Both the position numbers and the translations under genes were made by a program. From sequence record NC_014792.1: 64,000 bases of DNA; one strand, given 5' to 3'. The DNA comes from Escherichia phage vB_EcoM_VR7. This document shows, piece after piece, positions 37,124 to 41,316 of this stretch (position 1 is the first letter of the stretch; each line of letters starts with the position of its first letter). A model generated the notes under the pieces. That model did no database searches, was not told the origin of the DNA, and was given only the letters and a program-made list of their open reading frames with translations.

Positions 37124-37370
37124 AATGCTCTTCCAGGAAGTCCAGGAGGGCCGTGGCGGAGGTAAAGATACCACCATCAACCTTGTCTTCATCTTGATAG
37201 TCCATCACATCCAGACCGATACGTCCATCAGTTAGCGGCCATACGCTGAAAAAGTATTCATAACCTTTTTCAATTTCTTCAATCTTGCGAAAAATCTTTT
37301 CGATATTGTTCATAGGTTTCCACATCTCTACTACTTGAGTATAAATATAGTATATCACCAAAGAGGACAT
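37113..37370 (-). CDS. Hypothetical protein (85 aa or shorter)
   Basis: ORF; start uncertain. Confidence 0.3.
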   Translation of the reverse strand: MSSLVIYYIYTQVVEMWKPMNNIEKIFRKIEEIEKGYEYFFSVWPLTDGRIGLDVMDYQDEDKVDGGIFTSATALLDFLEEHYVR

Positions 37371-37373
37371 ACA

Positions 37374-39213
<1,840 letters not shown>

Positions 39214-39217
<4 letters not shown>

Positions 39218-39696
39218 ACACCAAGCTCCTTATAAAGTTCTTCGCGACAAGTTTTCAGAATTTTACCAGTTTCATAAGCTGTGCTTTCAGAAACATCACC
39301 AAGTGCAGCGGCAGCTTGCATTTGGCCATGGCGTTTAGCAGCATATTCAAAACTTTTTACTAGCTCACGAATACGTTCTTTTTCATTGTATTCTTCAATA
39401 AATTCTGGATATTCCCAAACAGGTCGCATCATACGATACCACAGTTGGATGGTAATATAATTACTTCCATCCAGATTAATAATTTGTGAAGGCTTAATAG
39501 CGCCAGGAGCATAAAAAGTTACCTGTCTTACTACATCAATACCATCCACAATAGCCCAAGCAAAATCGAAGGTGGCCTTCTTTTCAATTGGCGTGCTCGC
39601 ACAAGACCCTAACTTTAAGAGCTTTTGTAATACAGGAGATTTAACTCCTGAAATGTACACAGGATTAGCTACAAAGCTGTTATCACGTAATGACAT
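39214..39696 (-). CDS. Hypothetical protein (~160 aa from internal ATG)
   Basis: ORF-track start 39750 is a TTG; first ATG gives MSLRDNSF... Confidence 0.4.
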
Positions 39697-39761
39697 AATA
39701 GTTTCCTCAAATATTTTATAATCCGTAGGAGCATTATACTCTGCTCCCAAGAGTTTGTAAA

Positions 39762-39869
39762 CTACTTACCAAAAAGACCATCAATACACATGCTGAATAC
39801 AATTCCAAAACAAAAGCATGCAAAACCCAATCTAAAAACATCCCAGCCATCGATACAGGCTTCAATCAT
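39762..39869 (-). CDS. Putative small hydrophobic membrane peptide (35 aa)
   Basis: Manually translated: MIEACIDGWDVFRLGFACFCFGIVFSMCIDGLFGK; strong GAGGAG SD ~7 nt upstream; start overlaps the last codons of the o-spanin gene. Confidence 0.3.
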   Translation of the reverse strand: MIEACIDGWDVFRLGFACFCFGIVFSMCIDGLFGK

Positions 39870-40155
39870 GGCAACGCTCCTCTTTTAGTTCAGAACGATA
39901 ATAACATAACATACCTTTTTGGTCATGTACATATCTTTTTACATCATTCATCCAAATCCTGAATTCTTGCGATGCTTCAAAAGGCATACCAACCCAGGCT
40001 TGACCGTCAATAACCTTCACTTCCCATTGCTGACGGTATTCCATTAATGTCTGTGGCCAATTAGGATGAACTTGAATTGTGGGCTCCGCAACGGGCTTCT
40101 GGGCACATGAAACGAGTCCAATAGCCAAACATACTGCCATGATAGATTTCATCAT
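39862..40155 (-). CDS. Outer-membrane spanin (o-spanin lipoprotein)
   Basis: Signal peptide ending in lipobox LVSC (MMKSIMAVCLAIGLVSC); 97 aa; directly downstream of and overlapping the i-spanin gene. Confidence 0.7.
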   Translation of the reverse strand: MMKSIMAVCLAIGLVSCAQKPVAEPTIQVHPNWPQTLMEYRQQWEVKVIDGQAWVGMPFEASQEFRIWMNDVKRYVHDQKGMLCYYRSELKEERCHD

Positions 40156-40505
40156 TTGGTGAGCTCCTGGAAGTCCTGGGCGAACTTATCAAAGGACTGA
40201 TTAATCTGTTTTTCAACTAATTTAGGCTTAGCTGCCACAACCTTAGTACGTTTTGCATCTACACGAAGTTTATCATTTTCCTTCTGCAGAAGTTCAACAT
40301 ATTCCTGGCGCTCCTGGTCAAGGAGATTAATTTGATTAACCTGGTCTTTTACTGATTGCAGATTTTTCGCGTTATCTTCTGCAACTTTGGTGACCGCAGC
40401 CACCTCTGTCTTGAGATTATCCACTTTTGCTTTTAGATAGAAACCACTACCAGCAGTTACTACCAGGGCGAGCATAAGCCCCGCAGTGATATTACTTATT
40501 TGCAT
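40152..40505 (-). CDS. Inner-membrane spanin (i-spanin)
   Basis: N-terminal TM helix (ITAGLMLALVVTAGSGFYL) followed by a charged coiled-coil region; 117 aa; paired with the o-spanin. Confidence 0.7.
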   Translation of the reverse strand: MQISNITAGLMLALVVTAGSGFYLKAKVDNLKTEVAAVTKVAEDNAKNLQSVKDQVNQINLLDQERQEYVELLQKENDKLRVDAKRTKVVAAKPKLVEKQINQSFDKFAQDFQELTK

Positions 40506-40999
40506 AACTTGATGATTACCTCAACAATATCATCCTGGGATAAACCATTCAGGAGGATGTGATTTGTACTGTCAGATGCTGAAATGCGGAACTGATTACC
40601 AACTTCATCCGCCATATCATCCTGGGTTAACACTGGATGTTTAATTCCCAGGCGGTGTTGAAGTGTCAGGGGTTCAACCACAACATAACAAACACATCCA
40701 TTGATATGCACATTAGGTTGGGTCTGATTGATGAACACTTCTGCATCATATTTAACCAAATGGTTCTTTAAGAAGTCAACCATTTCAGGAACAGATTCAT
40801 GAAGTGCTTCTTTACGCTCTTCTGATTTCTTATTGCGATATTCCTTCTGTTTGGTCTTCAACTTATTATCAGACGCCAGTTTCTTTCTTAAGTCAGTAAG
40901 GAACCCAACATTTTTGGAACCTTTATAAACATAGATTCCGTCATGGCGGTCACCATATACATCAACAATCATTTCATTTGAAATCAGTTGCATATTCAT
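40496..40999 (-). CDS. alc: Alc-like protein (167 aa from internal ATG)
   Basis: Position between the spanins and rnlA and 167-aa length match T4 alc; sequence identity not recalled, so the call rests on synteny and size. Confidence 0.4.
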   Translation of the reverse strand: MNMQLISNEMIVDVYGDRHDGIYVYKGSKNVGFLTDLRKKLASDNKLKTKQKEYRNKKSEERKEALHESVPEMVDFLKNHLVKYDAEVFINQTQPNVHINGCVCYVVVEPLTLQHRLGIKHPVLTQDDMADEVGNQFRISASDSTNHILLNGLSQDDIVEVIIKLCK

Positions 41000-41009
41000 A
41001 ATATTTTCC

Positions 41010-41276
41010 TCAATAGCGGTTATAACCTCTAGGACCAAAAGAGTTTGCACCCAGGCGCTCATCTTTCTTTTTGGCTCTTGCTCTAAACCCAGAATCACCT
41101 GTTTGGTCTTTCAGTTCTTTTAACAATTTGGCCTTCAGGTCAGTAATGAAACCAATCCGGCGGTCTCCCTTGTAGACATAGATTCCATCATTTCTGTCAC
41201 CATATGCCTTTGTAACTCTGTCATTTGAAATTAAGTTTAACATGTTTTGGTCCTCATCAGTAGTTGATGGAACCAT
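41010..41276 (-). CDS. Truncated paralog of the Alc-like N-terminal domain (88 aa)
   Basis: LISNDRVTKAYGDRNDGIYVYKGDRRIGFITDLKAKL aligns with LISNEMIVDVYGDRHDGIYVYKGSKNVGFLTDLRKKL of the downstream gene. Confidence 0.4.
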   Translation of the reverse strand: MVPSTTDEDQNMLNLISNDRVTKAYGDRNDGIYVYKGDRRIGFITDLKAKLLKELKDQTGDSGFRARAKKKDERLGANSFGPRGYNRY

Positions 41277-41287
41277 TATGTATAGAA

Positions 41288-41316
41288 AGAAGGGGCTTGT
41301 ACACCCCTTTTTTATT
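41288..41316. terminator. Hairpin plus T-run terminator downstream of rnlA
   Basis: gggg-cttgtaca-cccc flanked by T-runs on both strands. Confidence 0.6.

Follow-up and report, generated by a model that had tools for sequence, protein, structure and literature searches.

A conserved 35-codon gene behind the spanin genes of a T4-like phage, probably a swappable cassette for a single-helix membrane peptide

Within the 64,000-nucleotide stretch of Escherichia phage vB_EcoM_VR7 analysed here (NC_014792.1; subsequently designated the window), an open reading frame of only 35 codons begins inside the end of the o-spanin gene. This arrangement raises the questions whether the ORF encodes a functional peptide and whether such a peptide, expressed with the spanin pair, could affect lysis, as suggested in an initial annotation of the locus. 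The source phage is T4-like and belongs to the Gaprivervirus group, and its locus is 98.7% identical to that of Escherichia phage vB_EcoM_VR25. The relevant features are as follows.

39214..39696, minus strand: 160-aa gene, phrog_4482, with its own Shine-Dalgarno (SD) sequence past the promoter (ORF list, VR25, PHROG match).
39727..39761, minus strand: early sigma-70-type promoter TTTACA-N17-TATAAT, the 3' boundary of the slot taken by the 35-codon gene (consensus scan and fold).
39762..39869, minus strand: 35-codon gene for a small hydrophobic peptide, phrog_23289 member (sequence and comparative tests).
39862..40155, minus strand: 97-aa o-spanin gene, homologous to pseT.2 (labelled in VR25 as Rz-like spanin, similar to T4 PseT.2).
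39877..39882, minus strand: GAGGAG SD within the last o-spanin codons (read from sequence).
40152..40505, minus strand: i-spanin gene, pseT.3 homolog, 117 aa (ORF list and VR25 annotation).
41275..41309, minus strand: promoter-like site TGTACA-N17-CATAAT over a GC-rich hairpin (consensus scan only).

Position and coding status of the 35-codon ORF

The ORF runs from the ATG at 39869-39867 to the TAG at 39764-39762 and specifies the product MIEACIDGWDVFRLGFACFCFGIVFSMCIDGLFGK. The spacer between GAGGAG and the ATG comprises 7 nt (CGTTGCC), and the start overlaps the o-spanin TGA (39864-39862) by 8 nt, ATGATTGA. The initial annotation had described an ORF just past the o-spanin gene on the same strand, a strong GAGGAG approximately 7 nt upstream and a start overlapping the o-spanin end, and all three are borne out (ORF at 39762-39869 on the minus strand, GAGGAG at 39882-39877). 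Translational coupling to o-spanin, which had also been claimed, is plausible given this SD and the overlapping start.

On the minus strand, the genes are arranged in the order rnlA, a short alc-like ORF, alc, pseT.3, pseT.2 and the 35-codon ORF, which is followed by the promoter, the 160-aa phrog_4482 gene as next gene downstream, a 99-aa phrog_2364 gene and pseT encoding polynucleotide kinase. Start/stop overlaps are common in this array and are also present at the alc/pseT.3 and pseT.3/pseT.2 junctions and at three genes downstream of the 35-codon ORF. The alc-like ORF (88 aa; 41010-41276, minus strand) repeats the N-terminal region of alc (40496-41098, minus strand), as seen from YGDRNDGIYVYKGDRRIGFITDLKAKL versus YGDRHDGIYVYKGSKNVGFLTDLRKKL, and looks like a partial alc duplication; the VR25 counterparts of both are labelled "inhibitor of host transcription". 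On the opposite strand, a 254-aa ORF (37335-38099, plus strand) overlaps the 3' end of pseT (pnk), and its VR25 label is MobE-like homing endonuclease.

For an ORF of 35 codons size alone is uninformative, since 62 ORFs of 25 aa or more overlap the surrounding 5-kb stretch. We therefore rely on comparison among relatives. When the peptide was used as tblastn query, 85 of 85 phage records matched at full length with 57-100% identity. Among 26 related loci that were extracted, representing 22 nucleotide and 18 protein alleles, the frame is intact from ATG to TAG in every case (34-35 codons), and the length differences consist of single-codon in-frame indels only. Conservation of the ORF in relatives, the check proposed with the initial annotation, has thus been run and revealed no interruption in any of the 26 loci. 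The ratio pN/pS, summed pairwise, was 0.34 for the 35-codon gene (0.38 for the T4-likes alone), as compared to 0.34 for o-spanin and 0.56 for i-spanin in the same genomes. The five other frames over the gene yielded ratios of 0.52-1.55 and contained 7-51 stops. Variable columns are distributed 15/16/29 over codon positions 1/2/3, i.e. with a third-position bias. At 10 of 13 invariant residues the codon varies synonymously, e.g. GGA/GGT/GGG at G22 and TGT/TGC at C20, and therefore selection acts on the peptide rather than on a nucleic-acid motif.

By these comparative measures, the ORF is a genuine conserved gene under protein-level purifying selection. One could argue that it gives rise to no functional protein and is a conserved spacer or an RNA/DNA element that stays open by chance, as it is very short and goes uncalled in many curated records (VR25, JS98, RB-type RefSeq). 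However, the frame-specific purifying selection, the synonymous variation at invariant residues and the restriction of indels to in-frame events speak against a spacer, as does the fact that the gene has been kept independently, with its own SD, after transfer into an unrelated phage family (see below). This explanation is already strongly disfavoured and we regard it as very improbable.

The profile HMM of phrog_23289 matches the product from end to end (E=5.8e-21, residues 1-35 versus profile positions 1-35 of 35), and matches were likewise obtained with the Kuravirus allele (E=2.3e-14) and the divergent T4-like allele of the VR26 type (E=2.2e-16). Judged by these matches, the peptide is a member of a family that is catalogued already, albeit with no assigned function, and we found no paper on phrog_23289. 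Searches of Pfam, NCBIfam, PADLOC and the PDB sequences returned no relatives of the peptide. The description of the ORF as unannotated consequently stands for VR25, the closest RefSeq record, as well as for JS98, IME08, Bp7, VR5, KIT01, AnYang, SP18, 172-1 and NJ01, in all of which the gene is uncalled; it falls short for pEC-M719-6WT.2, CLB_P2, P479, UGJNEcP3, MX01, P896, UPEC07 and ABTNLsp5, where it is called as a hypothetical protein, and in view of the PHROG match. Hence, the RefSeq records of VR25, JS98, IME08, Bp7, VR5, 172-1 and NJ01 leave out a gene for which selection is evident. In Yersinia phage vB_YenM_P8 (XAO54605.1; 801-908 of the extracted locus) and in ESCO10 (WEY10244.1), the 35-aa peptide carries the label "thioredoxin", which is likewise attached to an unrelated downstream protein of 106 aa. 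This label is unsupported, because the peptide has no Pfam match and its PHROG is without function, and it appears to be a spreading annotation error.

Exchange of the gene between phages

In T4, T2 and RB69, the slot right past pseT.2 is filled by pseT.1, which encodes a soluble, conserved hypothetical protein of 72-76 aa. The flanks are common to the source phage and RB69/T2: on the 5' side, the end of the o-spanin gene with the AAGAGGA SD and the ATG that overlaps it, and on the 3' side, the TAG/TTTACAAACTC..GGGAGCAGAGTATAATGCTCC promoter immediately past the stop codon. The SD lies in conserved C-terminal codons of o-spanin, and AAGAGGA(G/A) is kept in relatives, the pseT.1 carriers included. 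Derivation of the peptide gene from pseT.1 was considered and rejected for want of similarity: blastp produced no alignment between PseT.1 and the peptide at E<=100, and no PseT.1 homolog was detected within the 64-kb window. PseT.1 occurs in about 800 records and reaches out to Klebsiella and Serratia T4-likes (35-47% identity). In view of this far wider spread, PseT.1 is the older occupant of the slot, and the 35-codon gene is its lineage-specific replacement in Dhakavirus and Gaprivervirus.

The promoter at 39727-39761 begins 1 nt past the stop of the ORF and is the best of the region (11/12 match). Its -10 box lies in the loop of a stem-loop, GGGAGCA...TGCTCC(T), with a 7-bp stem, whose fold z-score is only -1.7. 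Promoter and stem-loop are kept in relatives and are found at the same place in RB69, past pseT.1. The element occurs a single time in the 64-kb window; records of other genomes each have 2-4 places that match the blastn piece spanning it. For the promoter/stem-loop elements (PeSLs) of T4/PST-type phages the consensus TTTACW-N17-TAYWAT has been published (Comeau et al. 2014, PMC4122927), and PeSLs are reported to act as promoter/terminator linkers by means of which ORFans are shuffled in T4-type phages (Arbiol et al. 2010, PMC2839356; PMC4122927). Movement of the cassette between T4-likes agrees with this published shuffling (PMC2839356, PMC4122927). The promoter-like site at 41275-41309 overlies the hairpin AAGGGGTGTACAAGCCCCTT directly past rnlA. 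It is the probable start of a transcription unit comprising the alc-like ORF, alc, pseT.3, pseT.2 and the 35-codon ORF, and by its sequence it may be another PeSL-like boundary.

Downstream of the promoter, the phrog_4482 gene is kept in the source phage, VR25, VR5 and KIT01 and is absent from P479, Bp7, AnYang and SP18, in which a 111-118-aa form of phrog_2364 lies directly past the promoter (approximately 936-1290 of the extracted loci). According to this comparison, presence or absence of phrog_4482 is a second indel polymorphism of the same plastic region.

A homolog of 34 codons, MNEVCTGWDLIRFAAACFCFGI(V/I)FSMCMHGIFGK, is encoded by the Kuravirus podophages 172-1 (941-1076 of the extracted locus) and NJ01 (1485-1620). 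It possesses its own GAGG SD and occupies an unannotated gap between two small genes. Among 89 related records, 172-1 and NJ01 are the only carriers. In relatives lacking the gene, e.g. pEC-N1203-2Af.1 and CHD5UKE1, the flanks are joined seamlessly (around 560-580 of the compared loci), which identifies the Kuravirus gene as an exact 117-bp insertion. The insertion is bounded by a direct duplication, TTGAGGTTAA(T/CT)ATG, that is made up of the next gene's RBS and start. The site is equivalent to the gp106/gp105 junction of SU10, where CDS 69-125, including this junction, have been assigned to the sigma-70-transcribed early genes (PMC4281155). The Kuravirus copy accordingly resides among small early genes, and the spanins are not located there. 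Judged by these surroundings, the peptide gene belongs to early-type transcription units in both the T4-like and the Kuravirus contexts.

Two observations thus come together: replacement of one ORF by another between relatives with identical flanks (pseT.1 versus the 35-codon gene), and presence or absence of the gene at one site in Kuraviruses. As far as sequence comparison can tell, the 35-codon gene is a discrete cassette that has been exchanged between unrelated virulent coliphages. This illustrates micro-gene mobility: one 35-codon module replaces pseT.1 in T4-likes and reappears as a 117-bp insertion in an unrelated podophage.

The family has a very narrow distribution. When 1.84 billion representatives at 50% identity were searched with a profile, a single true cluster was retrieved; the second match was a spurious repeat protein whose similarity is restricted to "AFCFGN" and was discarded. 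A DNA pattern derived from the invariant residues only matched 10 viral contigs, all of them known isolates. In metagenomes, 2 of 7 matches to this pattern are true contigs, both in T4-like context, and the other five were dismissed as chance matches with stops or without an ORF. In bacterial and archaeal genomes of 100,044 species, no real copy was found, both matches (2/2) being due to chance; the peptide gene was likewise absent from the 72,556 plasmids and the 5,426 complete E. coli genomes searched. A strict core pattern obtained by back-translation matched VR25 solely, and an o-spanin query of IMG/VR recovered three near-identical isolates only. Across the collections searched, the family is confined to virulent coliphages, namely Dhakavirus and Gaprivervirus T4-likes and two Kuraviruses. 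One Logan contig (1,168 bp) carries a 156-aa variant, in which a TAG to CAG change fuses the peptide via the promoter region to the phrog_2364 protein. This fusion, which could be a sequencing error or a true variant, explains why 35-aa and 99-156-aa proteins are mixed in clusters at 90% identity.

The peptide product and its relation to the spanins

Among the 18 protein alleles, the invariant residues are M1, E3, C5, G8, F19-C20-F21-G22-I23, G31 and F33-G34-K35, and D10 and C28 are nearly so; FCFGI and GxFGK stand out as conserved motifs. The source-phage peptide does contain the four cysteines noted initially (C5, C18, C20, C28), but these do not represent a conserved trait as a set: C5 and C20 never vary and C28 hardly does, whereas C18 is replaced by F in VR5-type alleles, which have C7 instead, and some alleles have only three cysteines. 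AlphaFold2, run on the alignment of the 18 sequences, predicted a single helix spanning residues 8-33 (mean pLDDT 75.5). Maximal Kyte-Doolittle values over 19 residues range from 1.65 to 2.52 across all alleles. Predicted helix and hydropathy maxima bear out the initial view, a product made almost entirely of one transmembrane helix, insofar as the peptide is essentially a single hydrophobic helix. On the Hessa scale, the centre sums lie close to zero (-2.5 to +1.7), i.e. not strongly favourable. The flanks carry net charges of -1 to -3 at the N-terminal and 0 to +1 at the C-terminal side. A transmembrane segment agrees with both the hydrophobicity and the charges of the flanks, and the slight charge asymmetry weakly suggests an N-out/C-in orientation. 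A signature of helix docking through one face was looked for and not found (helical moment 0.043 as compared to 0.095 for shuffles). The conserved residues rather form blocks, a mid-membrane ring and both ends; as they are not collected on any single face, simple one-face docking is not specifically supported.

Could this peptide be part of the spanin machinery? An i-spanin has a TMD at its N-terminus and reaches the o-spanin through a subsequent periplasmic domain, most of which is coiled coil. This class was rejected for the peptide, as the helix at 8-33 nearly fills the 35 aa and leaves no room for a periplasmic domain. For an o-spanin, a lipoprotein signal with the lipobox [LVI][ASTVI][GAS]C is expected. 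The peptide has G-F-A before C18 and A-C-F before C20, thus no lipobox, and it is also devoid of a basic n-region; o-spanin, lipoprotein and signal peptide were rejected as well.

The initial annotation suggested that a membrane peptide expressed with the spanin pair could affect lysis or envelope function. In a fuller form of this idea, the peptide is co-translated with PseT.2 and modulates the spanin complex or the timing of lysis. It could do so by packing against the TMD of the i-spanin, or Cys5 could interfere with disulfide isomerisation of PseT.2. Indeed, in about 80 T4-like records (Dhakavirus, Gaprivervirus) the peptide gene always adjoins pseT.2 with an overlapping start. Cys5 is invariant and predicted on the periplasmic side. 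In T4 PseT.2, both C-terminal cysteines are essential and undergo disulfide rearrangement (PMC6139136), and the source-phage o-spanin has two cysteines equivalent to this pair. A more exotic variant of the idea is an "anti-spanin", in which periplasmic Cys5 would trap the essential C-terminal cysteines of PseT.2.

However, several observations let the link appear positional only, and a role in lysis is not supported. Overlapping starts are generic in the gene array. The SD belongs to conserved o-spanin codons and also serves pseT.1, and it is the unrelated soluble PseT.1 that accompanies the orthologous spanins of T4, T2 and RB69. T4 PseT.3 and PseT.2 alone complement the lambda Rz/Rz1 defect (PMC6139136) and hence suffice for spanin function in the lambda background. 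The Kuravirus homologs are encoded away from the spanins, in an early-gene array. Finally, vB_EcoM_005 retains the peptide gene despite an o-spanin truncated to 63 aa. For these reasons, we consider a spanin or lysis modulator quite unlikely, and the present analysis supports no change to the understanding of spanins or lysis. In vB_EcoM_005 (MK295203.1; 1013-1204 of the extracted locus), an internal or 3' deletion has removed the C-terminal Cys region of o-spanin together with the SD; the genome has only 155 kb, and the truncation may reflect either a true deletion or faulty assembly.

Proposed mode of action and comparison with known systems

We favour the explanation that the locus contains a real gene for an inner-membrane peptide of 34-35 residues with a single helix, which is carried as a swappable cassette and acts apart from the spanins; on balance we hold this to be probable. 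The gene would be transcribed early as last cistron of the alc-spanin unit, from the promoter-like site at approximately 41303 to the promoter/stem-loop at 39761, and would be translated from GAGGAG, probably coupled to termination of o-spanin translation. Once inserted into the membrane, the peptide would have K35 on the inside, whereas its acidic N-terminus (E3, C5, D10) would lie on the outside. It would probably act alone, as an accessory moron-like effector and not as a third spanin subunit, and the invariant mid-membrane FCFGI ring and the GxFGK end would pack against another copy of the peptide or against a host inner-membrane protein. Among the candidate roles, the peptide might exclude superinfecting phages, inhibit a host function bound to the membrane or perturb the membrane itself.

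A more specific version, which we put forward tentatively and consider rather unlikely, is that of a self-contained 35-residue effector directed at a specific host inner-membrane target and travelling from myovirus to podovirus as a cassette of approximately 105-117 bp. It might block DNA entry of superinfecting phages or a membrane-anchored defence or transport function, and its transfer would rely on recombination at sequences of translation initiation or at PeSL linkers. If this were true, the gene would be among the smallest autonomous, horizontally mobile phage genes.

Alternatively, the peptide might be a generic membrane-damaging small toxin, similar to a type I toxin or a viroporin, which oligomerises and depolarises the inner membrane without a specific protein target, thereby aiding host shut-off or setting the timing of lysis. 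Its size of 34-35 aa, the one hydrophobic helix and the early-gene context are in agreement with such a toxin, and absence from host chromosomes and plasmids is compatible with toxicity. However, strict conservation concerns specific residues (FCFGI, GxFGK, C5, G8) and not mere hydrophobicity, which argues for specific contacts. Unlike most amphipathic or cationic pore formers, the peptide has one basic residue per end, and it has no homology to known toxin, holin or defence families. Altogether, a generic toxin appears unlikely. Assignment as a holin or antiholin was also discarded, as there is no Pfam or NCBIfam match, and to our knowledge all known holins are longer than 35 aa. Type I toxins come from chromosomal or plasmid loci that also specify an antisense RNA antitoxin, and they are toxic when overexpressed; the peptide was not classed as one of them either, given that 5,426 E. 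coli genomes, 72,556 plasmids and genomes of 100,044 species contained no copy.

The value of the favoured explanation, an effector-type membrane peptide on a swappable cassette, presently lies in a corrected annotation and a neat example of micro-cassette mobility. It is a modest finding and does not amount to a new mechanism; if a membrane target were identified, the peptide would join the few phage micro-proteins that have been characterised.

Comparison with known systems places the gene as follows. With two-component spanins (Rz/Rz1; T4 PseT.3/PseT.2) it shares adjacency, probable co-transcription and a membrane-associated product, but in T4 the spanins function without the peptide (PMC6139136). 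PseT.1 has the same slot, a start overlapping the pseT.2 stop, the same SD and a stop abutting the same TTTACA...GGGAGCAGAGTATAATGCTCC promoter/stem-loop, but is twice as long, soluble, charged, unrelated in sequence and far more widespread; since slot but not sequence is shared, PseT.1 is a positional analog and not a homolog. PeSL-bounded ORFan cassettes resemble the locus in that, within a plastic region, a small ORF that is not essential is replaced between relatives and is followed by an early promoter and stem-loop at its 3' side. They differ in that a PeSL is lacking on the 5' side here: the ORF directly adjoins the o-spanin gene, whose 3' end with the RBS forms this boundary; moreover, the Kuravirus insertion uses a duplicated RBS/start instead of a PeSL.

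Helix packing is the mode of action of certain small single-pass membrane proteins, among them AcrZ, MgrB and MgtS of E. coli and, of the phage superinfection-exclusion proteins, Imm and Sp of T4. They have no sequence similarity to the peptide, and the parallel is one of working manner, an analogy only. In this restricted sense, the peptide would resemble all five in size class, in its one hydrophobic helix and in the conserved residues within the membrane segment, and Imm and Sp in early expression as well.
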